Of a DNA stretch of 64,000 bases, positions 5,920 through 50,494 are shown one piece after another. The stretch's first letter is position 1. Every line of letters starts with the position of its first letter. The translations under genes and the position numbers were made by a program. The notes under the pieces were generated by a model. That model made no database searches, was not told where the DNA came from, and saw nothing but the letters and a program-made list of their open reading frames with translations. The stretch comes from Ginglymostoma cirratum (lineage: Eukaryota): assembly GCA_024137785.1 (NCBI GenBank), contig JAHRHZ010000024.1:33216644-33280643 (forward strand), given 5' to 3'.

Positions 5920-6153
5920 AAAAACTGGAAGAACTGTAGATGCTGTAAATCAGGAACAAAAACAAAGTTGCTGGAAAAGCTCAACAGGTCTGGCAGCATC
6001 TATGAAGGAAAAAACAGAGTTAACATTTCGGGTCCAGTGACCCTTCCACAGAACAGTTCTGAGGAAGGGTCACCGGACCCGAAACGTTAACTCTGTTTTT
6101 GCCTTCACAGATGCTGCCAGACCTGCTGAGCTTTTTCAGCAACTTTGTTTTTG
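5920..6153. mobile_element. Palindromic Penelope-derived element with 15-bp TSD
   Basis: Arms ~5957-6053 and ~6056-6153 are near-perfect reverse complements. TSD tacacaagtactgtt (5905-5919) / tatacaagtactgtt (6154-6168). Confidence 0.9.
6055..6092 (+). ncRNA. Minimal type-I hammerhead ribozyme motif
   Basis: AGTT-CTGAGGA-a-GGGTC-accg-GACCC-GAAAC-GTT-AACT: stem I AGTT/AACT, core CUGANGA/GAAA, 5-bp stem II, palindromic ACGT stem III. Confidence 0.8.
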
Positions 6154-7139
6154 TATACAAGTACTGTTCTTCGTCTCTGAGAACGATTGTGCGTCCAAGA
6201 GCAATTACTTGCTTATTCATGTGCAGTTCACTTACGATCAGAAACAGTGCATGATATCTTATACTGGAGTGTCTATTCTAATGAATTACTCATTCCTGTA
6301 TGTAGTTAGAGGGTAAGATTCACTGAACAAATATCAAAAATGTCGATACATGTCCCAGCTCTGCAAACCCGAAGTGGGAAGTACAAATTTTGGCAAAATT
6401 TGGATTCTTGTTCTCAGGTCGTGTTTCTGCAAGTCATGACTCGTGATGCTGGAAAGTATGCTGCCAGATACTGAGGTAGGCTGGGAGCATAACCATCAGT
6501 GTACCAGCACTTTGTCAGAGACTTTCCAATCACAATGAAACAAAGTAACCACCTTCCAGTCTACACCCTCCCCATGCCATCAAATCGGAATGTAGCCGTA
6601 GAAAATACATGTAGGCTATTTGCCCTTTCATGTCTGCTCTGCAAATCAATACAATCACAGCTGACCAGGCAACTCAGTACCCTGTATGTGCCTTCTCCTT
6701 CTATCCTTTGACCTCTTTAGCCTCAAGTAACATATTTGACTCTTTCTTGAAAAGTCTAACTCCTTCTTCAAAATGCTCTCTAATCATGCCCATGACTTCT
6801 CATGCTGGCCATTCCAATCAATGCACGACAACACACCTTTACAATGTCAAAGTCAACTAGGTGCCTTCCCCACGTACCAGTTTTCTCTCACACCTACCAT
6901 CCCTACTCATTCATTATCTATTACAGGTAGATCTCAAGAAATAACTTTTATCTTGGCATCGATATTAAGTGCCAAATTGAAGAATTCATTATTTCAAAGA
7001 CAGAACACTCTCGCTGATAGAAATTCATTCATTACACTTCGATGAATATCTCACAAAATCATGCGTTAGAATTCAACTGAGGCCAAGAGAAGGCAAAAAC
7101 TTTGTATTTAGTGATTACAAAATGCACTTCCACCAATAT

Positions 7140-7375
7140 CACGTGAGACAGATTAAGTGGGTGGGAACCAAACTGGCTTATAGAGTATCATACGGAAAAA
7201 AATAGGACATTGTATGCTTTGGTAAGAAGAATAGAAAAACAAATCATATTTAAATTGACAGAGACTGGAGAATACTGTAGCACAGAGCAATCAGGATTTC
7301 CTGATATATGAATCAAAGAAAGGCACCATAGATGCACATCAAGGGATTAGAAAGGCAATTAAAATGTTGGGGCCG
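7140..7375 (+). mobile_element. CR1/HER1-type LINE fragment
   Basis: gattaagtgggtggg..tttggtaagaagaatagaaaa..attagaaaggcaattaaaatgttgg, typical CR1 post-RT region. Confidence 0.7.
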
Positions 7376-7410
7376 AACGTTTCTCTCTCAAAGCAAAACT
7401 TAACATATAG

Positions 7411-7954
7411 TTCTAAGGTTTTGGAGTAGATCTGTAGCTCGGGTTGTGGGTGTTGAGGTTGGTTGGCTCGCCGAGCTGGNNNNNNNNNNNNNNNNNNNNN
7501 NNNNNNNNNNNNNNNNNNNNNNNNNNNNNNNNNNNNNNNNNNNNNNNNNNNNNNNNNNNNNNNNNNNNNNNNNNNNNNNNNNNNNNNNNNNNNNNNNNNN
7601 NNNNNNNNNNNNNNNNNNNNNNNNNNNNNNNNNNNNNNNNNNNNNNNNNNNNNNNNNNNNNNNNNNNNNNNNNNNNNNNNNNNNNNNNNNNNNNNNNNNN
7701 NNNNNNNNNNNNNNNNNNNNNNNNNNNNNNNNNNNNNNNNNNNNNNNNNNNNNNNNNNNNNNNNNNNNNNNNNNNNNNNNNNNNNNNNNNNNNNNNNNNN
7801 NNNNNNNNNNNNNNNNNNNNNNNNNNNNNNNNNNNNNNNNNNNNNNNNNNNNNNNNNNNNNNNNNNNNNNNNNNNNNNNACTGAGGATGTTACCAAGCAG
7901 GTAACGAAACGTCTGCGGAACAACAAACCAGCTCGGCGAGCCAACCAACCTCAA
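7411..7954. mobile_element. Self-inverted Penelope-like insertion (second family) spanning a 400-N gap, 10-bp TSD
   Basis: ttgaggttggttggctcgccgagctgg (left of gap) is the exact reverse complement of ccagctcggcgagccaaccaacctcaa (right). TSD taacatatag at 7401-7410 and 7955-7964. Confidence 0.85.
7880..7915 (+). ncRNA. Minimal type-I hammerhead ribozyme motif
   Basis: CTGAGGA-t-GTTACC-aagca-GGTAAC-GAAAC-GTC: 6-bp stem II, GUC cleavage triplet; the 5' strand of stem I is mostly in the gap. Confidence 0.8.
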
Positions 7955-8727
7955 TAACATATAGCTGTTACTTGAATGCATAACTATTCTCTTCTGACTT
8001 ATTATTCCTACACCATTTTCACGTGGACTTTGTTGGGTCAGGAACGCATTCCAAGTTCCAAGATTTACCAAGTTTTGGATCCCCATCCTGAGCATCAGAG
8101 GAATACTGTATTTCATTTCGTGCTCTTTTGGTGTGACATGGGTTTTTGGAAAACAAAAACAACACACAGCTCCTTGGAGAGTTTGTGACCACTGTGAGAA
8201 CACTGCTGAGGATATAGTAACATCCTAAAGATGAGGTGTAAAATGTTTTCATACTGTCATATGTTTCTGTAAGGCACTGTTTTGTAATGTGGGTTCATTT
8301 TTAATGCAGTGATTTACTGAAGAGACCAGTCCTGCAAAGGTTAATTAACGCCCACATTCATGAGCTTTCTTTAATCATTGTCCCACATTTCACTATTTTT
8401 CCATTGGCAGAAAGAAGTGCCAGAAAATAAAAATAAAAATAGAAAAAGATGAAGGCCCACCAGCCTCTGCAGTCATGTTCTGTCCTATCATTTAAACTGA
8501 CCAACAGCTCAAGCTGTTTAAAATAAACCTTGTCTTTGAAGTTCAAAAAAAATTGTTGCATCTGCTCCCGTCCACTGATCGACAAGCACTCAGCTTGGAT
8601 TTGGAAAACTGACACCTCCTGCTCTTTTCAGACAACACAGCCTGATGCTTCTGTTATGACAGCTTCGTGGGTGTGAATAGTTGGCTGTGTTTCAAAAGCT
8701 TTCAGGATGTCCCATCCCCTATAATTA

Positions 8728-8975
8728 CATAGTACAGACAGAACAAAAACAGGCCATTTATTTCAAAACACCAGTGCTCTCTTCTAAGGACTCCTCCCCA
8801 TTTTTTTTCCAAATCTAATTCTTTCATTGTAACTCTCTATTCACGTGTAGCTATCGAGCTCCTTTTTAAATGCATTCACACTATTTGCTTCAACCACTTG
8901 GTTCCCCATTCTGCATTCTTACAATTCCATGGGTAAAGAGGTTTTATTTCTAAATTCCCATTTGGATTTGTCTCC
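8728..8975 (-). mobile_element. CR1 LINE 3' end fragment
   Basis: catagtacag..caggccatt..aaatgcattcacactatttgcttcaaccact..gggtaaagaggtttt..aattccc. Confidence 0.65.
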
Positions 8976-9518
8976 AATCATGACCTTGATGGAATTCTCG
9001 AGGATGGCATGACAGGTTTGGGGATACTGGGGTAGGGGTGGGAAGGTGGTTGTGACGCTCAGTGTTAATTAGGTACATTCAAGCACTGAAGCAGCTGCCT
9101 AGCAGCTCACCTCCTGAAGTCTTGAAAATTTAACCAGAGCAAGCAATCATTGGAAGCCGCGTTATGTTGAACCGAAGTGGTACAACGGAAAATGTTTAGG
9201 CATGTTGAAAAGCATTCAGGTTTTGTCAAAACTTTATACATGACAACAATCTTTTACTATCATTAACATTTCTCTACTTTATCAGAGTTTCCAACTCTCC
9301 ATTTTTCAAGGGCAATCTGAAGATTCAGGCATGTTCTTCATTTTAAAATCAAGCACATTTGGTAGCCCCATAAAACAGCTGCAAAATGGACCACAAAATG
9401 ATCCACCTCCCTGGTGACCCATCTCTTTTCCGACTCCCCAGTCATTATTTGGCTGTCAACCCTGGGGCTGCTGACCAATGAATCCATTGACTCCACCAAA
9501 ATGCAATTAAACCTCTTT

Positions 9519-9680
9519 ATTGGCCATGCTAAATTGTCCTATTGTATCCAGGGATATGTAAGGTAGGTATATTTGCCATGGTAAATCGAAGTTACAGGGA
9601 TAGGGTGGGATGCTCTACAAAGGGTTGGTGAAGATTCAATGGGCCAAATAACCTCTGTCCACACTGTAGGGATTCTATGG
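9519..9680 (+). mobile_element. HE1-type SINE 3' fragment
   Basis: ttggccatgctaaattg...gggtgggatgctct...cacactgtagggattctatg, shared with 28198-28492. Confidence 0.8.
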
Positions 9681-10834
9681 CTCTAATAGCAGCAGCTTGG
9701 GTAAAGATATTATTGATTGCTTCAAAACAGCACGGTGATAACAGAAACTAAAGACCTCTGGACAATTCAGTCACCATGGAAACTTGCAGATCCAAAGCTG
9801 AAAGTTGAGAAAAGAGCCTGTATGAACTTGAGAATTAAAAACATGAGCTGCAAACACTATTATAAAATCTTCGCTTCCTTAATACAAGCATTCTCCAGAG
9901 TGGTCACTTTGCACCACAGCAATCCACGATTAATACCATTCTGTGTTCTTTCACATGTGGGGGAAGCTTAACTGTTCAAAATCATAGCAGCAAAGCTCAA
10001 GGTGGTTAAACACACATTCTCTTTCCCACCACAAGATGCATAATTACTGAATCATGTATTTTTCATTCGCTATGCAAATTTATATAAGCAGATATATGCT
10101 TAATATTTACCTTCAACAACTAATCACTTCACTGCATTTCCACTCATGCCACTTGCATATTTGTTGTTAAGAAAAACTACAGTTTTTCACTGCTGGAGCA
10201 GCAGATTTTTCATGTCATGGACGGAATGTTCCTGTATTCAATAGAATCTATTCTCCTATACCAAGCAACAAATCCTGTGCATTCACTTCTCAATAGTGTA
10301 CTTGTACATTTCAAGTTTGATATCCAAATGTTTTAGCAGCTAAAGTGAGGCAACTGTCCACTGTCTCCCCACTCTCCTGCAAACAAATCAGTTTCTAAAT
10401 CATTTACATTCTCATCAATCTGCTTTAGCCATTCTTTTCTAAGAATGGAAAAGGCTAATTAACCTTTCGTTTGAACAAAGGGAATCATGCAGTCCTCTAA
10501 TTCCATCTCCAGGGATTACACTGATAATTATAACAATCTGCAATCTTAGTATATGCACAAATTGAATTCTCTGCTTTCCTGTAAAATAAGTAGTGAGGCT
10601 TTTGGAAAATATTATTGCAACCTTTATCCTCTCATTATTGTTCTGAAATTGCAAGGGACTTTTCAGTCAAATCAAAACATCTCTATTTATTTAGCAATAG
10701 TACACCAACAATGGTGAATCATTTTCAAATCAATCTTTCAAACATAATCTTTGGAAGAAATCTTGCATTTCATTGGAAAATTGTGAAATTGTTCTTATAA
10801 CTGATGCAACAGTAAAAAGGTTTTTAAAAAAGTA

Positions 10835-10935
10835 AACAAACACGAGATCGCAGGAGAAACTCAGAAGGTCTGACAGCATCTGTGTGGAGAGAAAGATAAT
10901 GACATTGAGTCCAATTTGACTCTTCTTTGTAACAT
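10835..10935 (-). mobile_element. Degenerate Penelope-like terminal fragment
   Basis: ggagaaactcagaaggtctgacagcatctgtgtggagagaaa..gagtccaatttgactcttctt resembles the left arm of 5920-6153. Confidence 0.6.
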
Positions 10936-13477
10936 TCAGTTTCAACGTCACCCAGGTTTTGGAGCATGTGTGGACCAGGGTATGGGGAAGAATGACCCAA
11001 AAAAAGTACGGGATAAGTTCAAGGGGAAGGCCGACACAAAAACACTATAATTGGCTCCTAGAGTAATTAAATGCATTTCTGTACAAATAATAGCTGAAAG
11101 GGTATACAGCAAGAAAACAAATAAATTGGGTTAATTCAGCTTGTTGGCAAATGGCATTTTTCTCCTGATGAAGCAGCTTTTCTAAGTAGTTAAACATATA
11201 AGTCAGTTACACATAGGTATTGTAGTGTATTTCAAATATAGCAGATGGTTCTTACATGAAGTTCTAAAAGAATTAACAGTAGCCTCTTTTACAAAAAAAA
11301 GTAAAAGCTCTCTCATGTGCATTGTCATTGGTCATGACCCAATTCACATCGCATTTAACTCCCTGCGTTTTTAATCGGACTCTGGTTTGTATATTCAAAG
11401 AGGTATGGTACTACTTGCATTTTAAAGGAAGCAGCAGTAAAAGCAATCTCCTATAATGGGAGATAAAGTAGATGATCTGTTTGTCTCCCGCAATACTTTC
11501 CTGCATACGCTTCTGACCCATTAATATCTCAGAAATGTTTCCTGCATTGATAGCTCACGTTTCCATCCACATTTCCGCTCCTGTGATACTTGGAAGCCTA
11601 TCAGTTCATGACTACTGAGTTGCACATTAGGAAGTAATCAGAGCAATCCAGAGACGCCTACTGCAGCTGGGTTAGATCCAGCAGTCAACATGGAAAGTCA
11701 ACCCAACAACTGTGAAAATAATTTGATTTATTCACGCACAGAAGGCAAACACCAATAATTACACACTCCAAGATACTTTTTGAGAGCTTAAATTGCATGA
11801 TCCCCGTATTAGTTTACTAAAAAAAAGTCCATTCTCCAATCATGATGAATTTTGTGCTGACAATTTTAGTGTGCTTATGCTCTTGTTATGAAAAGATTTC
11901 TTGATTAGTTATGCAGCTTTAGAAAACCTAATCAAACTGAAAATTAAATGATGAGGAGATTTCAGCACACCTCTTAATTCTTCCCTTAGGAAAAAAATTT
12001 GACAACACAGCATTCAAACAATCTGCTATCAAATGTTCACAGATATGACCATATTTTGCATATCATTTATTCATGAAGGATGGTGGACATGAGTGGTTGA
12101 AAGGTTTTCTATGTATTAATCAACCTCGTCGGTTGCAACAATGCTAAACAAACTTACAGGACATTCTAGAGCATATAAAAGACTTATATTACTAAACTTA
12201 AATGAATGATTTAATTGAGATGGACAATGACTGTCCAACTGCAAGTGATATACAAATGCTAGCTTAGCAGCTATTCATCCACAGCACCACCAAATGCTCA
12301 TTCTACTTTAACAATAGAACAAAAGCCACTCCCCTGTTGTGAAACTAAAGGGTGAGCTCGTATCCACCTGGCCAGCTCATCATGGTGGCGACAGATCACT
12401 GGCTCAAGGTGAACCCCACCAGGGAACACGTCCCACCGAAACAGACTGCTGGGCCGAACAAATAGACTGGGCAGTAGTACCCACTGCTGGAACACAAGGT
12501 CAGATTTCAAGGTGTCACCAGGAGTTTGGGGTGAGGTGTTATTTAATAGGATAGGTGTGCACAGGACAGTGAAAGTGGAAAGACAATTGGGGAGGATGAG
12601 AGTGTGAGTGAAGATTACCTCAAGGTGGTGTCCTTCATTCGACACAAAGGTTTGGAATGAAAACAATGTTGTGCCTTGCCTGGCCATCAACCCACCCCAT
12701 ATCAGGTTGGACAGCTGGCACCTATGAATGCACAATTAACAGCAGAATGAGACACTGAAGTCACTATGAACTGGTCACTTATCTCCCCAATACCACACAA
12801 TCAGGTGGTCTTCCCAATTCCTCCTCTAAAACTGGCTAAATTGCTGCTGGGGTAGTGGTGCGCAAGCAGGCTTAGGTAACAATATTCTTATCATTGCCAC
12901 TAGATTTTGGCCCCCACCCCTCTCATCTGACATCCCGCCACTCCACAGTCTTTGCAATTCATCTCTCATGTCCTAATTTTGATAGTGGCAAGTGCTCTTC
13001 AAGGCGAGAGAGTTGACTAAAAGCAATCAACAATTTTAATTGGGTCCTCAGTTGGATGGGTTCTGACATCAAACTTGCAAGCTACTAGTGCTGGAGATGA
13101 GATCCCCTTCACAATGCTTTCCATGACAACATGCCAGGGCAGGAGTCTTGATTGCTAATGCTGACATCTTATAATTGACTAGGTAACACTGTCTATGCCA
13201 GCACAGTCTGGATAGTCCAACTGACTTGAAAACCTGAAGTGTCACATCCTCCATCACAAGAATTCAGGACCACCACAGGCTTTCAGAAAAAGTCAACGAC
13301 CCACTATACATGGAAGGCATAATCACAGGTGGGCCTTGGTGACAATTCTATTTTCAGGAGTATTATAAAATTAGATGCTCTTTACTATATTTCTGGATTT
13401 CTATACCACTGTTGCTGTCATAGTGGCATACAAGTCTCAGTACAGCAAAGGCATAAATATTAATCCGCCTCAAGATG

Positions 13478-13562
13478 GACTTTATTTCTCATTCTTCGAT
13501 GGGATGTAAGCATCACCAGCAAGGCCAGCATTTATTGCCCATCGCTAGTTACCCTTGATCTG
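13478..13562 (-). mobile_element. SINE/LINE shared 3' tail fragment
   Basis: tgggatgtaagcatcaccagcaaggccagcatttattgcccatc is the reverse complement of the tail of 3585-3937 and 55120-55465. Confidence 0.7.
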
Positions 13563-13674
13563 AATGACTTGCTCAAATGTGATGGATGACTTGGGGGCTG
13601 CAAAGTATTCAGCTTGCATCATGGCAAAACAGTTCAAATGCCAATTAGGGTTCTCTCCTTCCAAAGCACAACTG

Positions 13675-13940
13675 CTTTCTTTATCAAATGAACAAATTAG
13701 CCAAGGAATTTATCAACCCTAGGGTAGTTGCTGACTGGAACTTGCTGAGCAGTTTGGTGGAGGTGGCAAAAACATAAAATTAATTTAAAAGGAACCTGAT
13801 CTGCGCATAAAATGCAATCTTACTGACAACATGCTTGAAGGTGGGTTTAGAATAGGTAGCTCATTCTTCTCCGGTCAATACAAATGTGATTGGGTTGAAT
13901 GGCTTCCAACTGTACCATAACTGTTCCTTGGTTCTAACTG
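13675..13940 (+). mobile_element. Old CR1 LINE 3' end
   Basis: agggtagttg..tggaacttgctg..gtggaggtggc..atttaaaaggaacctgat..gggttgaatggcttcc..tgtacc. Confidence 0.6.
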
Positions 13941-14286
13941 ATTAACTGAAGAACCACCCTTTCACAAGCACTGTAACAAGAAATAAAATAAAAATGACAT
14001 TTGATGCCTCAATCACATGTGGTACACTGCACTCCATTAAACACTGGAATTTTTACTATGCGTAATACAGTTTAGAAACAATTATAAACATGAACGAACT
14101 GGAGTTGAATTCCCCAAAACTCTTGCTGACTTAGCACTGAAATTCTTCCTGTCCAAAATGAAGAAACACAAGACTATTGCATAAGGAAATGGGCTAATGT
14201 TGGAGACTGCAATAAGGTCCACCCAATCTGATAATGTCAACTGGCTTGGCTGAGCATAAAACAAAACCTCTTAGGATCCTGTGGAG

Positions 14287-14402
14287 GGCTTTTGTTCCAC
14301 AGCAGTAGCATTCCTACCTACAAAACAGAAGACCTCGGTTCAAATCCCATCTGCTTCAGATATGGATCATGACACTTCAAACAGGTTGGTTAAAAATCAT
14401 TG
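14287..14402 (+). mobile_element. Short tRNA-derived SINE, copy 2
   Basis: ggttcaaatccca B box, caggttggttaaaaat end; TSD aggatcctgtggag (14273-14286) / aggatcccatggag (14403-14416). Confidence 0.8.
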
Positions 14403-17400: not shown

Positions 17401-17404
17401 AGAG

Positions 17405-17570
17405 AAGGGCCTTGTGTTCAGTTGACAAGAGAGCCAACATGTGATTGAGAATAAAGCCAAGAATGTAGGATTCAATCCCCATTCTGGCTGTGGTAGACTT
17501 GCAGGCCCACTTCCTATCTCTGCCTTGAAGGAGTAGTAGATATATACCATGGTTTGGCGACTGTTGAATA
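17405..17570 (+). mobile_element. Degenerate tRNA-derived SINE (family also at 33388 and 57620)
   Basis: ttcagttg..gccaagaatgtaggattcaatccccattctggctgtggtagac. Confidence 0.5.
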
Positions 17571-17949
17571 ATTGAGTGTGCTACTTGGAGAAAATGATGT
17601 CAAGTACAGACTGGGAAGGTCATTTAGCCCATCATTGCTCATCAATTTAGAAAAATCACTCAGGTATTTCTAACATTTCTTGGAAGATTTCAGAGATTTT
17701 TGGAAACCCAAAATTGAAAATCTGCTCTACATGCAGCATCCGACTGCCTTTCTGCCTTTAAGCAAGATAATTGGTGCAAAAATGTAACAGTAGCACTCTC
17801 CAGAACACCAGACTGATGAATTATCAATTCAATAACATTTGTGCTACGATTGTGCTAATGCTGGATTAATTATGCTGCAGTACTTTAGGAAGTAACTGAT
17901 GAAATCAGTCACATTTGCACAAATAACAGATCCTTAGAGCAATGGAGCT

Positions 17950-18542: not shown

Positions 18543-18547
18543 AAGGA

Positions 18548-19235
18548 CTTTTTAAAAATTAATTTACAAGATGTGAGTAATGCTGGTTGGGCCAGCATTT
18601 ATTGGTCATCCCCAGTTATCCTTGAGATGGTGACGGGGAATCGTGTTCTTGAACCACTGGAGTCCACGTGCTATAGGGAGACCCTCAATGCCATAAGGGA
18701 GGGAGTTCCAGGATCTTGACCCAGTGACACTGAAGAAACAGTAATATATTTCCCAGTCAAGATAGTGAGTGGTTTGGAGGGGATCTTGCAGATAGTAATC
18801 CGTGTCTGTTATCAATGTGCCTGCTGCCCTTGTCCTTTTAGATGCAAGTAGCTGTAGGTTTGAAAGTCGATCTCTAAGAAGCCTTGATGAATTTCTGCAG
18901 TACGTCTTGTAGATGATACACAATGCTGCTTAGTGTCAGTGGGGAAGAGAATGCATGTTTGTGGATGTGGGCCAAATAGATGACTTTGTCCTGGGTGGTG
19001 TCAAGCTTCTCAAGTGTTGTTGAAGTTGCGTTGATCCAGGCAAGTGGAGATAATTCCATCACATTCCTGACTTGGGCCCTGTTGATGGTGGACAGGCACT
19101 AGGGAGTTAAGAAGATAGTCACTCACTGCAATATTCCGAGCCTCTGACCTGCTCTTGTAGCCACTGTATCTATTTATCTAGTCCAGTTCAATTTCTAGGC
19201 AATGGTAACTCCCAGGATGTTGATTATACAAATTC
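18548..19235 (-). mobile_element. CR1-clade LINE (3410-type family) 3' fragment
   Basis: Reverse complement matches 5440-5890 and 32480-33010; ORF 18874..19062 MMELSPLAWINATSTTLEKLDTTQDK. Confidence 0.85.
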
Positions 19236-21078: not shown

Positions 21079-21084
21079 TTTTTT

Positions 21085-24367: not shown

Positions 24368-24512
24368 TCCTTTATTCATTCACGGGATGAGGGCATCACT
24401 GGCCAAGCAGCATTTATTGCCCAAAGGGCAGGTGAGAATCAACCACATTGCTGTGGGTCTGGAGTCACATGTAGGCCAGACCAGGTAAGGATGGCAGTTT
24501 CCTTCCCTAAAG
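24368..24512 (-). mobile_element. 3' half of 3585-type SINE
   Basis: ttattcattcacgggatgagggcatcactggcc..gggtctggagtcacatgtaggccagaccaggtaaggatggcagtttccttccctaaa. Confidence 0.85.
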
Positions 24513-25870: not shown

Positions 25871-26888
25871 TCTTTCATTCTGCCTTTGTAAAGTGTTTGA
25901 ATATGGTTGATCTACAGTGACAATCAGACAGGCAGAGTCTGTTCCAGGTTGTATATTAACAAATAATGAAAATGTAAAAGATACATAGATGTGTACAGCA
26001 CAAAAGGAGACCATTGTCAACATTTGCTCAAGCAATCCAAACTAACCCTCTGCTGTTGTCACCCCCTTAGATACATTGTCTGCCTCTGCTCCAAGTGTTT
26101 ATCCAATAGGCGATAGAACAGACTTAATTCAACACCTTATTACATTATTGGTAAACAAAATGCACATCAAGAAGTGCCACTAAAGAATACAATATGATCA
26201 AACAACCTGCAAATGCATTGATTACTGTGTCAATGTGCTCATTCTGAGTCAGCTTATCCATAAGTCATTAATTTGAAAATTGAACAGTCTGCAGATTTCT
26301 GTCTTAAAATATCGATCTAATTTTCTACATGTTAATAAGTTATTACTTCAACTGCCATCTTAACCTAGGGTCTAAGTTTTCCAAATATTGACAGTTTTTA
26401 TGCAAAATGTGACTTCACAAAGTTTTTCTCAGGGTTTACAGAAAAATGTTAGGATGCAGTTATGTGTGTGGTCAGACGTAAGAGATTACTAAATTAGTTC
26501 AGCCATTCATTTCAAAATCTTCAAATTAGTCACTTATTTTAGATAGAAGAGTGTTGCTCTGCGTAATCTGCCAGCCAACAAAATCATATTCTTACAAATC
26601 AGTCCTTTCAAATACCTGTGTTCATTTGATTTTAATAGGTCATTAATTACAAAGAAAAGCACTCAGTCCCATTTTTCTTCTGCTAAAGAGAGACCAACTG
26701 TAGCATCCAAGCCTGGAGGCCCAGCGAAAAATTTCAAACTAGCTTTAAAAACCTCATCCAATTTTTATTTCCCAATTCTACCTATTTCATAGATAGTAGG
26801 AACTGCAGATGCTGCAGAATCTGAGATAACAAGGTGTAGAACTGGATGAACACAGCAGGCCAAGCAGCATCAGAGGAGCAGGAAGGCT

Positions 26889-26916
26889 GACGTTTCGGGC
26901 CTAGACCCTTCTTCAG
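26889..26916 (-). ncRNA. Minimal hammerhead core in the PLE terminus
   Basis: Reverse complement CTGAAGA-a-GGGTC-ta-GGCCC-GAAAC-GTC; stem I weak. Confidence 0.65.
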
Positions 26917-28067
26917 AAATGGGGGAGGGGAAGGGGGTTCTGAAATAAATAGAGAGAGGGGGGGAGGCGGATAGAAGATGGATAGAGGAGAAGATAGGTG
27001 GAGAGGAGACAGACAGGTCAAAGAGGCGGGGATGGAGCCAGTAAAGGTGAGTGTGGGAGGAGGTGTAGGGGCAGGTGTAGCACTTCCTGCGGTTGCAGGG
27101 AAAAGTGCCGGGTGAAGTGGGGCTGGAGGGAAGTATAGAGCGAACAAGGGAGTCATGGAGAGAGTGGTACCTCTGGAAAGCAGACAAGGGTGGGGAGGGA
27201 AAAATGTCCTTGGTGGTGGGGTCAGATTGCAGATGGCAGAAGTGTCGGAGGATGATGCGTTGGATCCGGAGGTTGGTGGGGTGGTACGTGAGGACGAGGG
27301 GGATTCTGTTTTGGTTCTTATTGCGGGGACAGGGTGTGAGGGATGAGTTGCAGGAAATGCGGGAGACACGGTCGAGGGCGTTCTCGACCACTGAGTGGGG
27401 GGAAGTTGCGGTCCTTGAAAAACGAGGACATCTGAGATGTATGGGAGTGGAATGCCTCATCCTGGGAGCAAATGAGGCAGAGGTGAAGGAATTGGGAATA
27501 GGGGGTGGAATTTTTGCAGGAAGGATGGTGGGAGGAGGTGTATTCCAGGTAGCTGTGGGAGTCGGTGGGCTTGAAATGGACATCTGTCTCTAGGTGATTG
27601 CCGGAGATGGAGACAGAGAGGTCCAGGAAGGAGAGAGAGGTACTAGAGATGGTCCAGGTGAACTTAAGGTTGGGGTGGAAGGTGTTGGTGAAGTGGATGA
27701 ACTGTTTGAGCTCCTCCCGGGAGCACAAGGCTTCAAAAACCCCCTTCCCCCTACCGCATCCCAAAACCAGCCCAGCTTGTCCCCGCCTCCCTAACCTGTC
27801 CTTCCTCTCGCCTATCCCCTCCTCCCACCTCAAGCCCCACCCCCATCTCCTATCTACTAACCTCACCCCACCCCCTTGACCTGTCTGTCCTCTCTGAATT
27901 GACCTATCTCCTCCACAACTCCCCCACCTACACTCACCTTTACTGGCTCCATCCCCGCCTCTTTGACCTGTCTGTCTCCTCTTCACCTATCTTCTCTTCT
28001 ATCCATCTTCTATCCGCCTCCCCCTCTCTCCCTATTTATTTCAGAACCCTCTTCCCCTCCCCCATTT

Positions 28068-28095
28068 CTGATGAAGGGTCTAGGCCCGAAACGTC
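28068..28095 (+). ncRNA. Minimal hammerhead core in the inverted PLE terminus
   Basis: CTGATGA-a-GGGTC-ta-GGCCC-GAAAC-GTC; stem I weak. Confidence 0.65.
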
Positions 28096-28197
28096 AGCTT
28101 TCCTGCTCCTCTGATGCTGCTTGGCCTGCTGTGTTCATCCAGCTCTGCACCTTGTTATCTCTACTTTTTCATGTTTGTTCTTTTCTTAATTTCTATA

Positions 28198-28492
28198 ACA
28201 GTGGCTCAGTGGTTAGCACTGCTGCCTCACAGCACTAGGGACCTGGGTTCAATTCCACCCTCAAGCAACTGTCTGTGTGGAGTTTGCACATTCTCCCAGT
28301 GTCTGCATGGGTTTCTTCTGGGTGCTCCGGTTTCCTCCCACAGTCCAAAGATGCGCAGGTTAGGTGGATTAGCCATGCTAAATTGCCCATAGTGTTCAGG
28401 TATGTGTAGAACAGGTGGGTTATAGGGGGATGGGTTGGTGTGGACTTGTTGAGCCGAAGGGCCTGTTTCCACACTGTAGGGATTGTATGATC
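28198..28492 (+). mobile_element. HE1-type V-SINE, near full length
   Basis: gtggctcagtggttagcactgctgcctcacagc (A box), ggttcaattcc (B box), V-domain ctgtgtggagtttgcacattctccc..gggtgctccggtttcctcccacagtccaaaga, tail ccgaagggcctgtttccacactgtagggatt. Confidence 0.92.
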
Positions 28493-32479: not shown

Positions 32480-33010
32480 TGTTTGATGAATATTCAAGAT
32501 GATGAAATTGAAATGCTTGCAGGCAAAGTTAAGTACTGCAGTTGGATGTATGACGACCAAAACCTTGGGGGGCACCAGTAACCAAAAACCAAACTGGACT
32601 AACCACATAAATACTATAACTCTAAAAGCAGGTCAGACGCTCAAGATGCTGCAGGAAATAACTCATCTCCTAACTTCCCACAGCCTGTCCATCAGCTACA
32701 AGGCACCAGCCAGGAATGTGATGGAATACTCCCCACTGACCTAAATGAGTGCTGCTCCAACAACACTCAAGGAGCTTGACATCAACCAGGACAAAGCAAC
32801 CTGCTTGACTGGCACCACATCCATGAACATCCACTTCCTCCACCATTAATGCTCAGAAGCAGCCATGCGTACCACATACAAGATGCTCTACAGCAACTCA
32901 CCAAAGATCTTTAGACAGCACCTTCCAAATTCACAATCAATTCCATCCAAAAGAACAAATACAGGGAAACACCACCATCTGTAACTTTCCTCCAAATCAG
33001 TCACTGATCC
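32480..33010 (+). mobile_element. CR1-clade LINE (3410-type family) fragment
   Basis: QKPNWTNHINT..KAGQTL..HLLTSHSLSISYKAPARNVMEYSPL. Confidence 0.85.
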
Positions 33011-35453: not shown

Positions 35454-35485
35454 TAGCGCCCCCTCTGTGCCAAACGCAAGTGCAG
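35454..35485 (-). promoter_or_regulatory. Candidate CTCF-binding site with upstream motif
   Basis: Minus strand CTGCACTTGC-gttt-GGCACAGAGGGGGCGCTA; the 3' core AGGGGGCGCTA matches the consensus, the 5' core is imperfect. Confidence 0.4.
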
Positions 35486-36543: not shown

Positions 36544-37007
36544 GAGATAACAAGGTGTANNNNNNNNNNNNNNNNNNNNNNNNNNNNNNNNNNNNNNNNN
36601 NNNNNNNNNNNNNNNNNNNNNNNNNNNNNNNNNNNNNNNNNNNNNNNNNNNNNNNNNNNNNNNNNNNNNNNNNNNNNNNNNNNNNNNNNNNNNNNNNNNN
36701 NNNNNNNNNNNNNNNNNNNNNNNNNNNNNNNNNNNNNNNNNNNNNNNNNNNNNNNNNNNNNNNNNNNNNNNNNNNNNNNNNNNNNNNNNNNNNNNNNNNN
36801 NNNNNNNNNNNNNNNNNNNNNNNNNNNNNNNNNNNNNNNNNNNNNNNNNNNNNNNNNNNNNNNNNNNNNNNNNNNNNNNNNNNNNNNNNNNNNNNNNNNN
36901 NNNNNNNNNNNNNNNNNNNNNNNNNNNNNNNNNNNNNNNNNNNNNNNNNNNNNNNNNNNTACACCTTGTTATCTCAGATTCTCCAGCATCTGCAGTTCCT
37001 ACTATCT
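36544..37007. mobile_element. Self-inverted PLE-derived insertion (26791 family) spanning a 400-N gap
   Basis: gagataacaaggtgta[N400]tacaccttgttatctc...actatct; TSD ctgaagaataat at 36529-36540 and 37008-37019. Confidence 0.85.
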
Positions 37008-37695: not shown

Positions 37696-37852
37696 GTGTG
37701 GAGGTGCCAGTGTTGGACTGTGGTGGACAAAGTCAGAAATCACACAGCACCAGGTTACAGTCCAACAGGTTTATTTGAAAACACAAGCTTTCAGAGCCTC
37801 AGTTCTTCCTCAGGTGCTAGGCCTAACACCTGAAGAAGGACTGAAACTCTGA
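37696..37852 (-). mobile_element. Short PLE-derived element (fourth family) with inverted partial end and perfect 12-bp TSD
   Basis: TSD tagtttatcctg at 37684-37695 and 37853-37864; cagagcctcagttcttcctcaggtg is inverted relative to cacctgaagaaggactgaaactctga. Confidence 0.85.
37782..37816 (-). ncRNA. Minimal hammerhead motif, partly degenerate
   Basis: Reverse complement CAC-CTGAGGA-agaactgaggctct-GAAA-GCTT-GTG: stem I CAC/GTG, palindromic AAGCTT stem III, mismatched stem II. Confidence 0.6.
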
Positions 37853-42700: not shown

Positions 42701-43099
42701 GGATGGGGCAGCTGATTTCAAAACTGGCAGAAGTTCAGGCAAATAATCTCCAGCAGATTATTCGGCTGGAGTCCTTCCAAAGCGGGTTATAAAGAGGGGA
42801 AAGGTCAAGCCCCATCTCTTCAAAATTTTTATTTCTCACCAAAACTAAAACTCACGCTGAAAACTAAGTAAGAAGTAAGAAATAAATTAAAAAGCTGCAC
42901 CTTTACAAAGACAATGTTTGTTTAAAGAACCAGCATTAACTTAATACTTTTCATCTTAATGCTTGAATGGGCAAAAACATATTGCGGGCAATTCATTCAC
43001 ATCTGGATTTCTAACAACCAGACCTTTCCTACTGATTTAAAATGCATGATTTACTATTTAATTATGAAAAAATATTGTGAACTTGGTGTCTTTTATGAA

Positions 43100-43222
43100 T
43101 TATACAGAATGTAGAACAGTACAGCACAGGAACAGACTGTTCAGCCCATGATGCTGTGCCGAACATGATGCCAAATTAAACTAATCCCTTCTGCCTGCCC
43201 TTTGCCCATATCCCTCCACATT
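43100..43222 (-). mobile_element. CR1 LINE 3' end
   Basis: gaacagtacagcacaggaacagac..ttcagcccatgatgctgtgccgaac..cccatatccctcca. Confidence 0.8.
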
Positions 43223-44209
43223 AACTTCCACATTCTTGAAAAATTTCCTACAGAAATGGAACACAAAAATTCTTTTTCCAACCTTTGACACAGTGCACCT
43301 GAAAAAAAGTATCTAAACAGAAATACATACCAAAGTTAATAGTGTGTTTTCCTCAGCCTTTGATGCACTATCTCAAAGTTTTGGAATGAAGTAAATGCAT
43401 TTTCAACACACCTCTTAAAAACATTTTCACTTACTTTTCGAGCTAATTCTGTGATTTACTGCAACGGTCATCTTACTAGTTTTGAATGAGCAAAGTGTCT
43501 GAATCAGACAGACATAGCTCCAACATGTAAACATCTGTCAATGTTTCAAGGATTAGTCATCTGTAGTTATAATGCTACCTGGATATTTGAATCTATTCTA
43601 CCATATTGCTATTGCTGCTCTCGAACCATCTTCACAATGGAACTGCTTGCAGGAAGTAGGAAAAAGCACAGCATCTAACAGCTATTCTTTACAGGGTGTG
43701 ACTTCAACTTCAAAGTTTTGCTTGCAACAAACAGCTCCATTGCAAAACAACAGTTGTGTACTCTGCTGCATAGTGCTTTTTGTATGTTGCTATTACCATG
43801 TTCCAATCAAAATCTCTAGAGCATTTCTGCAATTCTTTCCAGGGTGTTCAATGACTACCAATGGATAGGATTGGCCAAGAGCTTATTGATAAAACAGAAA
43901 ATTATGATACTTCAGTTAGAGAAAGAAAAGTACAGCTATGTTGAAAATCATCAGGAACTGACACTCTAAGATTATGGCACTCATCTTAATACTTGGAGTT
44001 CAGCACAACGATTGACGTTTTAAGATGATCAAAGACATTTATCATTCCATCAAGATCACAAGAAACATATCATCGCTACTTTAACACAACCTTAGTTTCC
44101 GCAACATTGGAGATCTAATCACCAGCTAAACAAAGCATACAGTCACTATCTTAGGTGAGATGCACTAACTGCAACTGTACTGCAGACCACTTAACTGCAC
44201 TTGCAAACT

Positions 44210-45040
44210 ATCACAGAATAATTATGTTGCAAGAGGCTGCTCAGACCATTGCTCCTGCACCAACTCTTCAAACAAGTATTATTATCAAGTGTCAATCTCC
44301 TGCTTTTTCCCCACAACCTTGCATGCTATTTTTATCCAAATAATCATTTAATGCCCTCTTAAATACTGATTTGAACCTGTCAATGTTTTCCATACCCTAA
44401 CTACTTACAGACTACTCATATCATCCTTGCTTTTTTTGCACATCATTTTAAATCTACACCCTTTCGTTCTTTTTCCTTTCCCAAGCAGGAACAGTTTCCC
44501 CTATCTACTCTATCCAATCTGCTCATGATTTGAAAAACCTAATCAGACCTCATTTCACTTTCCTGCTCTTCAAGGAGAGTCCCATCTTCTTCAATCTATT
44601 CTCACAACTGAAGTTTCTCATTCCTGGAACCATTCTTGTAAATTGTTTCTGCATTTATGTTTCCCATAATGTACACAATATTCCAACTGAAGTTCAACAA
44701 GTGTCTTATACAACTTCAACATCACCTCCTTGCTCTTGTACTCTATGCCATAAATAATAAAGCTGAGAACATTTCTGAAGAAGGGTCCTGACCGAAAACA
44801 TCAGCTTTCCTGCTCTTCTGATGCTGTCTGGCCTGCTGTGCTCCTCCAGCTCCACATTGTGTTATCTCTGACTCCAGCATCAGCAGTTCTTATACTATTG
44901 CTGAGAACGCTGTTTACTTTATTTATTGTTCTCTCTACCTGTCCTCTGATCTGTGCACATCTGCACCCATTGCTCCTACACCCCTTTTCGAGTTGGACCC
45001 CCCTCCCCTCCCCAGCCATTTTATACTGTATGTGTCGGAT
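44210..45040 (-). mobile_element. CR1 LINE 3' fragment interrupted by a PLE-derived insert
   Basis: acagtttcccctatctactctatcca..tcatgatttgaaaaacctaatcagac..cctggaaccattcttgtaaat..tgctcttgtactctatgcc. Confidence 0.8.
44771..44899 (+). mobile_element. Single-arm PLE terminal insertion (26791 family) with 9-bp TSD
   Basis: Starts at a degenerate hammerhead ctgaagaagggtcctgaccgaaaacatc; TSD gctgagaac at 44762-44770 and 44900-44908. Confidence 0.85.
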
Positions 45041-46023
45041 CTAGTTCCAGCTCCTTGCAAATATGTCACATTAGGAGCCCAAATGACAATTTTAAATGGA
45101 TGTTAGTGTCATTCTTAGCACATACAAGATTATTTAGCAAATGCTGTTCATTTGCAGAAGCACGTATAACACTAGGTGCGATGTTTGCAGTTTTGCAAGT
45201 TGGCTGTGTATGGTCAATTCCTTGCTTGTTGAGAACAGCCAAAGTGATATATTGTTTGATGTGATACACAAACACATGGCCTAAATGCTAGCATCATGCT
45301 AGTACTGAAATTCATGCACTACATTAATCATTTCTGTACTTAACAGGACAGTTAACAGTTTTTGTTAGTTTAATTTCTGAGGGCAATGCCTTCACCAAAA
45401 AAAACCTGGTAGTTAACTGTCAGTCATTATCTAACTGGCGCATTGACTACCACAACACACCTATTACTGGCAAGCCTATACACAAACCAATTAGTTCTCT
45501 TTGAAAGACTAAAAATGTTGTTGACCCTTTGTACTGATATTTGCTGAAAATTTCTTTGATGAGAAGAGGCATTTTTTCCAACAAACTATGTATTTTTAAG
45601 CAATATACAACAATTAGAGTAGAACTTTATTGGCAGCCATCAAAGAAGAGGATAATTAATACAGAAATACATCTTTGATATAAAAAGAAAGTGCCCTCAG
45701 ATATATTTACAAAAAGAAATGAAGATGTAGTATTGGTAGCTGAGGCAGAGCATCTATTGTTGACCACAGGCAGTTACTACAACTTATTTTTACTGCAAAA
45801 TAGATAGTATCCCGGTAGGCTACATCATTACATCTGTCAAAATTTTCTGCCCAAAAATGTGAAATAGCATTACAAAGAAGTTATAAAAAGAATGAAATCA
45901 CAACAAGATGTAACTCAGATTAGTCAATGCTGAAATGGAACTCAATTTTCTGAGGTGTATTACTGCAGAAATGCAAATCCTCAGCTCATGAGTTTATTAC
46001 AATTGAATGGAGAAATATTCTTT

Positions 46024-46337
46024 CATCATAGAATCCCTACAGCATGGAAACAAGTCCTTTGGCGCAACAAGTCCACACTGACCCTTGGAGCATCCCACCC
46101 AGCCCATCCCCTTATAACCCACCAAAGCTACACATCCCTGAACACAAGTAATTTAGCATGGCCAATCCACCTAACCTGCACATCTCTGGACCGTGGGAGG
46201 AAACCAAAGCACCCGGAGGGGACCCACACAGACATGGGGAGAATGTGCAAACTCTGCACAGGCAGTCACCCGAGGGTGAAATCGAACCCAGGTCCCTGGT
46301 GCTGTGAGGCAGCAGTGCTAACCACTGAGCCACCATG
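46024..46337 (-). mobile_element. HE1-type V-SINE, near full length
   Basis: Reverse complement of 28198-28492; both translate VAQWLALLPHSTRDLGSI. Confidence 0.92.
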
Positions 46338-48344
46338 CAGCCCTTCTTTGACTTTGTATTGCTCACTGCCAATGTTTTGGGACACACATTGTTGAAAAAT
46401 TTTCAAGAAAATTAATGTTCTAGCTGTTATAGTTAGGGAAGGAAAAGTTGTTTTGATAGTGGTAAATGACGGATGATCAAATTTTAACTTACATCATTTG
46501 ATCACTATACCACAGACCTTTCATGGACTAAAACTGGTTCCAAAAAGGAAGGGATTTAAAACAGCAACAGTTGTTTGCCAACCAGCTTCATGAAGCCCAT
46601 GAGGAATAAACAAAACTATCCACATTGAGTGCAACCTTGGCTTCATTCTGCCTGCTGGCATGCAGCCATACCAAGGTTCCACACACTGTGATCTGCATTG
46701 GCACACCAATCCTGTATTGACAGCTAGCTCCAGAAGTCAGTAGCTTCACACAGGAACCTCAGAGACCCGCACAGCAGACAGAAAATTAGACAGAACATTG
46801 ATTAAGAGTATCATTTTATCGAGAGACATCAACACCAAGCAAGTGAGTCAGCTTCCAGAAATTCGCAACTGCAAACTTCCATGATAATTTCACATTCTGA
46901 GAGATAAAAGACTCCCCTTCCAGTTAGTCAGCTTGGAAAGGTAATTAATCCAGATTCAGGAATACACATAGTGAATTCTACTTCAACAGCAGTCTTTGAG
47001 CAACAGAGATGGGAAGAAGAAAAATTAATTTGTCCTAACATGAGCTGGAACGCTTTCTCTTCCTGCCTGTTTCTCCCAATTTCATGGAATACAACACCCA
47101 GTTGAAAGTAAAGTTTTAAAATAGCTATTCAACAAAACTCTAAAGTTATATAGATTGTACTACTGCTAAGGAAACAAGTCAACAATTGAACAACTGTGGT
47201 CTCAGGTTAAGAATCTAACATTTTACGTATTCCAAGGGCTGTATAACTTTTTTGGTTTTAATTTTCCTGTCTGTACTAAATACATATCCTTTTAAACTTA
47301 TTACCCTGTGCTCATGTGTTTGCTTGATGTCATGATTTATTTTGTTCCTCAGGGTTAGTAGGTAACAAAAGTTGTCTTTCATTCCAAAAAAAGTCAGTAA
47401 TTTGTTCCTTCATTTGTGAGAGAACTGCGTTTTAACTGAGGTTTGATGACTGCATGTAAAGAAGAAGCAACCGGGAGGTTGTTTAAAAAATGGTAGCTGA
47501 TTTTTTGTCTTCACCAATTTGCACCATGGTTCTGAGAGCTGAGAAACACCCCAAAACACTCTACAAGGGCATTAATAAAATTTGATGCTGAATTCCATAA
47601 GTAGATATTAGATCAGACAAACGGAGGTTGGTTTGAGGAGTATCTTAAAGAGTGGAGAGAGGGTTGGCTAAATGTGGATCTTGAGGGAAAATTGATCATT
47701 CAAACCTTAGAGTGATGATGCCTTTTTGGGACCAATGCATTTCCACTGATACACGTGCAATTGCAGAATAATGATTATGAACTATCTAAGTTGGGAAAAT
47801 CCAATATTACCCATTTGTATTGCACATAAATATGCCACTGTAATGAATTTTATCTCATCTGAATAATTTGGCTTATTGATGGTAGAGATCGTATGTTGGA
47901 ATAAATAAATATACATAGGCTTTAGTTTAATCAACAATAAAATTGATTCAGCATTGTGTTCTCCCATTAATTTTCAACCTGTATTGCTGCTATTAGATTT
48001 CTTCTCATTAATCTCCTCAGTTAATGGATCAGAATTTCCATTGAGCAACATTAAAACAATTAATTCATTTCTATGAATTATTCCCAGCAAATACTTACCT
48101 CAGTGCTTTACAAAAAAAAACTGTCCCAAGGTAAACTAGAAATAACTTATGCACTGCCCATAGAAGTCTATTATGTTCTACCAGAGTGATCTAGAAGATT
48201 TATCCATGCACAATTTCATGGAAAGCTGAGTGAAAGATTACTATAATGAGCATCCATGTGCAAAACCTGAGCGGTACTTCTCTGATTTAAAAACAAAGCA
48301 TTCCAATGTGGTGCTATGCATTTAATACCAATTATGAAGCTCGT

Positions 48345-48455
48345 CACAGAAACTACCATCGAGTTCACTAATGCCCTTTAGTGAAGGGAATCTGCCATCT
48401 TACCTGGTCTGACCTAACATGCATGCAGACTAGACTCTTAACTACCCACTGAAAA
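48345..48455 (+). mobile_element. Internal fragment of 3585-type SINE
   Basis: gttcactaatgcccttt..gaagggaatctgccatcttacctggtctgacct. Confidence 0.65.
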
Positions 48456-49956
48456 AGAAATGGCACTTTAGCAACTGAGCCTCAAAGAACCCTGGTCTGT
48501 GTGAGGATCTTCACAAACCTTATAAAAACTCTACAGTGCAATATTCTGTAACATTCCTCCAGTTACATATTCACCACAATTCCCTTCCTTGATAAAAAGT
48601 ACACCGTGCCACCCTTGCAGGCCGATTGTTTATGTGCTGATAATATTTCATGAAAGCCTTCTGATAGATAATGTGAATGAGACTTATTCAGCATACAAAT
48701 ATCGATTAAAACAGCAAATATAATGCATCAGACTTGCAAACAGCAAACATGTACCACTTCTGATAAAACAATTTATCGATATTTGTTACCAATGCAGGGC
48801 AACTCCACTTCAAATGACCATGTTGCGCCGAGGGATAGAGCTTTGCTTTCAGAACTTCAAACAAAATTGCAAGAAACTATCGCTTTTTCCACAAAAAGAG
48901 CTGTGTTATTAAAATGATAAGTGATTTGGTAGTTTAAAATGCCCGCTGGGCAGCTTGCTATACAATATTCATCATATCTATTGGATCTGCTTAACACTGG
49001 AGCTCCTACTGGTTTTGAAATATAACAAAAAAATCATACATTTTCTTTCCATTTTCCAATCTCTTGCTTTCAATATTGAAGCAGACACAAATGTTTGCTT
49101 CCAACAGATGTAAAGCTAATTTACTTCATTATGCTATGTTTTTGCACTAAAATAAATATTTCATACATTTATCATCGAAGGATATCCAGTTTTAAAAATC
49201 GATCATTTGGTACCCATTCAATGTGCCACATGTGGCTTTATGAGCTGCAAAAAAAAGTGATTCAATCTGTAATCGTTGAAAGTGTAAGGTAATTCTCCTG
49301 CACAACATAAAACAGGAAAACAAAACAGTAAATTCCCTCACCTTCCCAAAAACAAAACTGGAATTCTCACAATGGTGAGCTCGGACTGCTTATGATACAC
49401 ATTTAATTCTTGATTCTGATTAAAAAGAAACATTTTTAAATACAGCAAGGCCATTCACGTTCACACTATACATTACTGTCCATTTGATGCTGATGACATT
49501 CATCGTTCTTTCCAAAACGTGCAATCTGATTTTCTAGTGGGTATTGTGAACCTTGAGTTCAGGAAACAATATTCCAAAACAGGTACTGTGCTGATCAATA
49601 TCTTGTTTACAGTGGAGGGAAAATAAAAAGCAGCTGGACTAATTTAATTGATATTTTGGTTTTGCAGAAAATCAGACAGCTGAAGTGAAAATCAAGAGAA
49701 GAGTTTCAGTTTTTAAAAGTAGACTCAAAAAGGTAATTGCTAAATTATTTACGATTATTTTCTCGCATTCAGTCAGCTGGTCTTCACCCTTCAGTAGCTA
49801 AACTGAGATGGAGGAATGTAGTAACTGAGGAACAAAACTGTAAACTTCTATTTCCGATCTGGTGCATCACTCAGTGCACAGTACTGCCTGCCAACCCAGC
49901 ATTACTGGTCATTGCTAGTAACCGGAACAAGCAATCATAAACAGCATTATGTACAG

Positions 49957-50070
49957 TTTCTTTCTTTTAAATCAACCTCTTCAGATGTAGCACCTTTACC
50001 GCAAGTGGTACTTGTACCCATACCTTCTGGCCCAGAAGTAGGGCCACTACCACAGTGCCACAAGACCCAC
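49957..50070 (-). mobile_element. Short tRNA-derived SINE, copy 3
   Basis: aatcaacctcttcagatg..gtacttgtaccc..ccactaccacagtgccacaagaccc; degenerate TSD agcattatgtacag / agcatcaagtgtacag. Confidence 0.7.
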
Positions 50071-50341
50071 AAGCATCAAGTGTACAGCCAGTAAGTTACA
50101 GAAATTAGCCCCAGTTAATTCCAATTATTTATAATTTGTCAGGAGCATTTAAAATTCATTACAGAAAGAGTCAGTCCTTCACAAATAGCAAACGTGGCAG
50201 ACAGCATAGGTGTAATTCATGATGCATGCAAAGTGCACACTTTTACTCCAGGAATTAAGTATCACCTGTTTTTTGCTTCTGACCCATAGACAAGCAAAGA
50301 TTGGATTCACAGTCAGCAAAAAAGGGTATATAGAAAATATT

Positions 50342-50494
50342 TTCAGAGATAGTAGGAACTGCAGATGCTGGAGAATCTGAGATAACAAGGTGTAGGGCTG
50401 GATGAACACAGCAGGCCAAGCAGCATCAGAAGAGCAGGAAGGCTGACGTTTCGGGCCTAGAAGGGTCTAGGCCCAGCTCTACACCTTGTTATCG
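50342..50494 (-). mobile_element. Collapsed self-inverted PLE-derived element (26791 family), 12-bp TSD
   Basis: Left arm near-identical to 26791-26905; right arm reduced to aagggtctaggccc+agctctacaccttgttatc; TSD atagaaaatatt at 50330-50341 and 50495-50506. Confidence 0.88.

Follow-up and report, generated by a model that had tools for sequence, protein, structure and literature searches.

Short inverted inserts in a shark genome window as likely products of ordinary Penelope-like elements

The stretch of the Ginglymostoma cirratum genome analysed here (G000:C24:33216644-33280643, 64,000 nucleotides, referred to below as the window) contains seven short inserts, most of them built of two opposed arms, that are related to the hammerhead-bearing ends of Penelope-like elements (PLEs). 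They raise the question of whether they form an independent, retrozyme-like class of small elements, as suggested in an earlier note on this DNA, or are made by the PLEs themselves. We consider it likely that the inserts are products of four ordinary PLE families that carry an endonuclease (EN), and that the short copies of two of these families are run-off complementary DNAs (cDNAs) of a capped 5' leader, with no independent ribozyme element. The elements are thus ordinary and are not retrozymes, but they leave a regular and apparently under-described insertion product.

The families are here labelled A (inserts 26791, 36544, 44771 and 50342), B (insert 5920 and the relics at 318 and 10835), C (7411) and D (37696), the inserts being named by the positions in the window given for them in the earlier note. 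Positions within an element are counted in element sense from the C of the CUGA core, which is position 0. Counts of arms and ends refer, unless another scope is given, to a blind sample of 600 kb. Twelve 100-kb blocks were chosen unseen; eight consisting entirely of N were dropped, and two adjoining readable ones were added. The sample holds 113 inserts touching the terminal module, 73 of which are gap-free and no longer than 260 bp.

Parent elements and their ribozymes

All four families have long copies with frames for reverse transcriptase (RT) and/or GIY-YIG endonuclease directly upstream of the ribozyme, which bears out the Penelope origin proposed earlier. Remnants of RT and EN lie upstream of the B, C and D termini; the majority sequences of the copies contain RT motif C and EN pieces in B and C, and the linker and EN only in D. 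The families are as distinct as had been claimed: identity to the frame of A is 52-64% in B, 30-33% in C and 34% in D. In each of them a terminal unit, consisting of the hammerhead motif and about 75-130 nt, is found after the open reading frame (ORF), and in A it is also found before it.

Eight long family A candidates were examined, and one of them, L291, is a full-length copy. It has a leader from +28 to +130, an open frame of 1,049 codons, a 3' pseudo-long terminal repeat (pLTR) up to +92, and a 13-bp target site duplication (TSD). [quoted passage not shown] The pLTR module stands both before and after the ORF in family A, as seen in L291, in L293 and in 1,231 exact genomic matches to the leader-to-ORF junction. 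The sequence of the supposed mini-element therefore occurs twice in an autonomous element, as its 5' leader and as the end of its 3' pLTR.

A CX4CxxC linker between RT and EN is present in A, B and D, and none is found in C. This points to A, B and D being Neptune (or Nematis) elements and C a Penelope/Poseidon element, the clade names being drawn from the linker motif; a CX2-5CxxC linker also occurs in Nematis and is hence not exclusive to Neptune (PMC8557442). The copies have a tail of 30-40 nt at one end, an inverted 5' copy and a TSD, all hallmarks of EN-bearing PLEs. Published Neptune and Penelope/Poseidon elements (PMC8557442, PMC3846280) are alike in these three respects and also in their single frame of RT and C-terminal GIY-YIG, hammerhead-bearing pLTR, heavy 5' truncation, and assembly gaps at inverted structures. 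Hammerheads, inverted pLTRs and the tail are already published. The 5' truncation is, however, described in those papers as variable, whereas here there is a sharp, G-bearing 5' end and a pairing of long and short arms that can be counted.

Two further features of the long copies may be recorded. Those of family D (L260, L265 and L266) have a long CT/CA microsatellite between ORF and pLTR, and in family A an Ala/Thr/Pro-rich low-complexity region of variable length lies between the N-terminal domain and the RT (about residues 190-300 of the L291 frame). A recurring 316-residue frame (150 matches) was considered as a defective master and rejected as an artefact of a frameshifted query, a longer C-run being present in 16/19 of these matches as against 0/9 other copies. 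An ATG inside the core, used as the ORF start in Anolis, was likewise rejected for family A: the full-length frame begins past the tail, and this ATG is missing from B and from one A subfamily.

The ribozyme was searched for with a strict descriptor (CUGANGA, one nucleotide, stem II of at least 4 bp, GAAA, a palindrome, and UH), which gave 32 matches in 660,190 readable bases and none in 3.3 Mb of dinucleotide shuffles. Four of the matches, intact motifs in three inserts, are in the window (6059, 7881, 26916 and 28068). The common ribozyme grammar claimed for the inserts holds for these, but not throughout: the motifs at 37813 and 44775 are degenerate, the latter having lost its palindrome; the 50342 insert begins at +11 and so has no core; and no motif is visible in the 36544 insert outside its gap. 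The inverted arm of the 5920 insert has core changes in its motif.

The predicted motifs have the features of type I hammerheads, namely the CUGANGA/GAAA/UH core, the extra base, a stem II and a palindromic stem III. Stem II has 4 bp in A, 5 in B, 6 in C and 4-5 in D; the stem I pairs are TTT/AAG, AGTT/AACT, CTGCA/TGCGG and AACAC/GTGTT respectively, and the palindrome is ACGT or AGCT. An Rfam scan of the sequences gave no hammerhead family at E<=1, its best match (MIR5048, below the gathering score) being the hairpin of the 5920 insert, and minimum free energy folding of monomers and dimers, which was not used further, did not recover the catalytic fold, as expected for minimal motifs. The minimal type I hammerheads described from metazoan PLEs (PMC4209133) similarly have an extra base between 9 and 10.1, a G10.1-C11.1 pair and a palindromic 15.2-16.2. 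They occur as many sequence families per genome, mostly as single motifs, with some opposite-strand pairs 100-700 bp apart. By comparison, stem II is 4-6 bp and stem I 2-5 bp here, and sharks are unmentioned in the sections of that paper cited.

Stems I, II and III differ between families with compensation, which supports the selection on the ribozyme inferred in the earlier note. This selection acted in the active lineages, and inserted copies show no added conservation of the core (core as against other non-CpG changes, 8/414 vs 86/3,076 in A and 4/90 vs 48/760 in B, a comparison of low power). Conservation of the fold across PLE hammerhead families has already been published (PMC4209133). 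The weak stem II of the D type in the window is common to 364 exact matches, and this D subfamily therefore spread with a weak stem II.

Ends of the short copies and pairing of their arms

The 3' ends of A and B arms fall into two clusters, at about +94 and about +130. In 28 inverted inserts there are exactly two opposed A or B arms, and every one of these 28 combines a long with a short 3' end. Inserts with a single arm show 35 long and 30 short 3' ends, and the contrast with the paired inserts is highly significant (P 3e-9). In the window, the pairing rule is obeyed by 5920 and 26791, and 36544 and 50342 agree with it as far as their ends can be seen. The long arm is reduced to the tail in 4/28, stopping at +87 to +95, where the partner arm starts (one of these lies beside a gap), and L293 likewise has a tail-only arm.

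The 5' ends are also concentrated in A and B, the two most frequent families. In A 26/83 arms and in B 19/49 arms end between -7 and +2, whereas only one and two arms, respectively, end between -30 and -8 (P 6e-13 for A, 1e-8 for B). The peak is at -5 to -2, that is, 2-5 nt ahead of the ribozyme core, and it is where both arms of the 5920 insert stop. It lies about 30 nt upstream of the predicted cut, around which (+23 to +32) only 4/83 A and 2/49 B arms end. The contrary case considered in the earlier note, of simple truncations with heterogeneous ends, is thus not what is found: the 3' ends are fixed, and the 5' ends of A and B are sharply peaked.

The same 5' end is found in leaders that are linked to an ORF. 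In the first 40 stretches listed, with 41 such junctions, 8 end at -5 to -2 (2 of them touching N gaps), 1 in -30 to -6 and 5 further up, the rest being scattered over +2 to +122; 40 nt of the ORF side was examined, so that some of these copies may not be full length. The centres of the palindromes vary by comparison: there are 955 exact head-to-head junctions for one A variant in the genome, with many different centres among the 50 listed. A splice acceptor was considered as the source of the 5' end and rejected, A having no AG at -4.

Many arms carry an additional, non-template base at the 5' end. There are 3,324 family A arms with an exact match from -4 to +19 and a non-template base at -5. 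In a hand count of the first 100 listed (contigs C1-C9), this base is G in 56, A in 34 and T in 10, compared with an expected 25% for G; many of the rows with A are the opposite arm of a palindrome. Among the listed family B arms in which A(-4) is retained but C(-5) is not, 12/23 show a G (P 0.004). An untemplated 5' G is the mark of a copied cap in LINE-1 and SVA (PMC4859970).

Several A arms (for example G000:C4:20779515 and C4:34462580) repeat at their 5' end a 7-nt unit starting with the extra G, as if the RT had realigned and recopied the RNA end in a telomerase-like manner. Just before the core, 70/76 scored long A arms have a run of three T, but in 5'-terminal arms this run varies from 2 to 6, a variation that is possibly due to slippage at the start of transcription. 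The A at -4 stands in the context CCATTTC in family A and TCAGTT in family B, both of which we take to fit the initiator consensus.

Proposed origin of the short copies and alternatives

On the basis of these observations, we propose the following origin for the short A and B copies. RNA polymerase II would start at the A at -4, in its initiator-like context, and the ribozyme would therefore lie at the very start of the capped RNA. The RT/GIY-YIG protein would make two nicks in the target, one per strand and 9-16 bp apart, and both would serve as internal primers of reverse transcription, one at +94 and the other at +130. Priming on the 3'-end copy of these sites would give long, 5'-truncated copies, and priming on the leader copy would yield cDNAs of about 98 or 134 nt, synthesis running up to the cap and copying it as G. 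Head-to-head joining of these two cDNAs via short microhomologies would give palindromes of 130-260 bp with a TSD, and survival of one cDNA alone would give a single arm. The template, which may be either the full-length RNA or a leader made from any solo pLTR that has a promoter, would be mostly uncut by the ribozyme.

The nearest biochemical parallel is Poseidon_Ac of Anolis (PMC11167929), for which two internal RT start sites bracketing the tail have been described in vitro, with both strands nicked and extended. Ribozyme cleavage is not needed for insertion in vitro in that system, and no RNA-seq ends at the cut site are described there. It differs in that its ORF starts at stem II, and that of family A past the tail; 5' ends and inversions are not addressed in the sections of that study cited. 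Twin priming in LINE-1 (PMC4859970) is also similar, in that two nicks prime on one RNA and give an inversion, and an extra G marks the 5'-complete copies. Unlike those of LINE-1, the priming sites here would be fixed, internal, 36 nt apart and about 100-130 nt from the cap, and complete products would therefore be tiny. In the openly accessible literature, as judged from titles and the start of abstracts, cap-terminated short PLE copies were not reported.

In a wider form, which we regard as evenly balanced between right and wrong, Neptune elements of the shark type would give rise in vivo to a strong-stop-like product. Both nicks would be primed by a protein dimer at two fixed sites of one capped and uncut leader, tens of thousands of mini-palindromes would record the start, the cap and the twin priming, and some of the units may be promoter-competent and self-spreading. 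The significance for PLEs is that the short copies supply countable rules (one arm per RT start site, a 5' end at the probable capped start, and little cleaved RNA) that map the promoter and argue that the ribozyme does not define the template's 5' end. These rules bear on how integration is completed, on the cause of the inversions and on the role of the hammerhead, and such a regular insertion product makes the mechanism testable.

Several observations weigh against the run-off from a capped leader. The start at -4 rests on DNA copies: the public RNA data (22 runs) consist entirely of contigs, in which RNA 5' ends, cuts and circles are not visible. Family A and B sequence is present in contigs of public runs from two other organisms. 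A point in favour is that in the contigs of 4/4 public runs no left loose end has more support than 28065 (-3), with 61, 54, 30 and 10 contigs; these ends belong to embedded copies of the two other organisms and do not represent RNA starts. Instead of a copied cap, the G could reflect terminal addition of C where the RT meets a hard stop. T-runs are of equal length in both arms at 12/14 junctions (hand count), which fits a single RNA, and also fold-back copying or later gene conversion.

The ends themselves are not uniform. B 5' ends are more spread, over -3 to -6; many arms end between +3 and +60, probably through early termination or joint resection; and the plus arm of 37696 stops away from both sites of family D. 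In the blind sample, 0/11 C and 2/7 D arms show the 5' hot spot; hand counts of the first 100 matches listed give about 4-5 for C (1,759 matches in all) and about 20 for D (364 in all). It is therefore rare in C and partial in D, and the model covers A and B best. Finally, 5' ends are weakly enriched at the predicted cut across the genome: under similar filters, 622 arms start at +28, compared with 148 starting at +27 and 195 at +30. The enrichment is confounded, since about 44 of the first 100 listed resemble variants with small indels, to which microhomology in A-rich sequence may contribute others. The predicted cut is the exact start of L291 and L335, and perhaps of L322, and there may be a minor cleaved template.

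The first alternative, which we think doubtful, is that of a self-propagating family resembling short interspersed elements (SINEs), in which an internal promoter in the 130-nt unit drives transcription from -4, and short masters are mobilised in trans. It would account for the ends being fixed on both sides, and for the dominance of short copies in B, where the blind sample and window together have 22 short and 2 long arms. At least 8,146 B matches have a non-template base at -12, a pattern that excludes the template base and so gives no ratio of long to short. An internal promoter has been described for the Penelope of D. virilis (PMC2377424). The A subfamily mix also differs between short and long copies (permutation p 0.007, the long set being biased by the search), a further point that counts against the leader run-off. 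However, the mix is alike in B (p 0.98) and D (p 0.12), all three A subfamilies have both long and short members, and over the roughly 90 nt compared neither A nor B nor D has a variant confined to short copies (28, 42 and 14 short arms). Of the two signs of independent amplification that the earlier note proposed to look for, fixed ends are present, and diagnostic variants are absent over this length. The variable centres of the listed palindromes, and outer ends that lie at both priming sites in 28/28, are unlike copies of a pre-formed palindrome. The 5' end is moreover found in ORF-linked leaders, as are the extra-T variants (L300, L305 and L319).

It is unlikely that the 5' hot spot is due to the RT halting, within the 3' copy of the pLTR, where a bound protein or an RNA structure lies immediately upstream of the hammerhead. 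Such a halt would involve addition of a terminal C, and inversions would arise by fold-back self-priming and be resolved by the endonuclease. The peak does coincide with the 5' edge of helix I, some junctions resemble short fold-backs or re-copying, and the frequent equality of T-runs would be explained; self-priming has been proposed for head-to-head PLE palindromes (PMC3846280), and resolution by the endonuclease for the tail (PMC8557442). Such a stop does not sit well with the ORF-linked leaders that share the end, nor with the upstream sequences of A (which is C-rich) and B, which differ and yet both halt at an initiator-like A. Tail-only arms (+87 to +130) could not be copied from a cDNA starting at +94, and C has the strongest helix I (5 bp) but almost no hot spot.

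That the inserts are retrozymes, cut by the ribozyme into monomers that circularise and reinsert, is very improbable: the motif is kept in four families, there is the weak excess at the cut, and retrozymes derived from pLTRs have been reported in one chondrichthyan (bioRxiv 2026.07.22.740005), but the inverted arm carries its ribozyme on the other strand, far fewer ends lie around the cut than at the upstream peak, and the copies keep the part upstream of the cut that a cleaved monomer would lose. Non-LTR retrozymes (PMC7229834; bioRxiv 10.64898/2026.07.22.740005) are also short, without ORF, related to pLTRs and equipped with a type I hammerhead. They are described as same-strand tandems with at least two ribozymes, expressed as circles (PMC7229834), whereas the window inserts are single or head-to-head and flanked by TSDs. 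No same-strand ribozyme pair, the hallmark of retrozymes, is present within any insert of the window. Elsewhere there are 4 such pairs in 3/121 clusters, all with long pLTR units. The independent class suggested in the earlier note is thus not borne out, given the head-to-head arms, the junctions that vary from copy to copy, the absence of variants private to short copies, and the 5' end shared with ORF-linked leaders. Units of this kind can be mistaken for retrozymes, for miRNA hairpins or for new SINEs.

The sole retrozyme-like array in the sample is L271 (G000:C12:40105342-40106643), of family A, which has one inverted arm and three same-strand pLTR units (from -110, -101 and -121 to +130) within a 15-bp TSD. 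Two of its units continue into the beginning of the ORF.

Inserts and other repeats of the window

The features of the window are listed in Table 1. The seven inserts lie where the earlier note places them; six have clear TSDs of 9-15 bp, and the TSD of 26791 is doubtful. Six of the seven are at least partly self-inverted, as had been noted, with the restriction that 7411 and 36544 are largely assembly gap and show just their outer arms because of the 400-N runs. Runs of 400, 100 and 10 N recur in other assembly stretches, as for scaffold gaps.

Table 1 PLE-derived features in the window (positions of the window; arm limits in element numbering).
Feature	Position	Strand	Description	TSD
Family B head-to-head palindrome	5920..6153		minus arm -3..+129 (with tail), plus arm about -4..+95	15 bp, 1 mismatch, 5905-5919/6154-6168
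Intact minimal hammerhead motif, family B	6059..6088	+	stem I of 4 bp and stem II of 5 bp; palindrome ACGU; cut predicted after 6088	
Family C (Poseidon-like) inverted insert	7411..7954		tail-bearing minus arm 7411-7479, 400-N gap 7480-7879, plus arm 7880-7954	10 bp, 7401-7410/7955-7964
Hammerhead motif, family C	7881..7913	+	6-bp stem II; 5' strand of stem I inside gap	
Family A inverted insert (26791)	26787..28161		minus arm -154..+130, broken ORF piece, plus arm -342..+94	doubtful (9 bp, 1 mismatch)
Family A ORF piece, frameshifted	27050..27731	-	RT C-terminus and CX4CxxC linker, residues 687-913 of the full-length frame	
Hammerhead motif, family A	26889..26916	-	4-bp stem II; stem I only 2 bp	
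Hammerhead motif, family A, inverted arm	28068..28095	+	matches strict descriptor	
Family A inverted insert	36544..37007		arm ends of 16 nt (+94 type) and 48 nt (+130 type) flanking 400-N gap 36560-36959	15 bp, 1 mismatch
Family D insert	37696..37852		minus arm -7..+116, short plus arm -7 to about +22	12 bp
Family D motif, degenerate	37813-37785	-	weak stem II, AGCU palindrome	
Family A single-arm copy, older	44771..44899	+	starts at -4	9 bp
Family A insert	50342..50494		minus arm +11..+130, then plus pieces +8..+19 and about +74..+92	12 bp
Old B-like relic	318..445	+	identified by eye	none found
Old B-like relic	10835..10884	-	+47..+96, 80% identical	none found

In the 26791 copy the linker jumps directly to -154 (window 27050-27070), the GIY-YIG part being missing through this internal jump. 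No host exon was identified in the window, and its 30 frames gave no Pfam match.

The window also contains two copies, in opposite orientation, of another short repeat (28201-28491 and 46025-46333; 87% identical over 184 nt), which presumably is a tRNA-derived shark SINE. One of them begins 40 bp past the 26791 insert. Seven older dispersed repeats, 70-90% alike, are probably fragments of long or short interspersed elements (3592-3939, 13481-13558, 18558-19222, 24371-24512, 32558-32945, 55114-55468 and 58628-59066). Finally, 2962-3155 and 4430-4623 form a local direct duplication, 1,468 bp apart and 84-90% alike.

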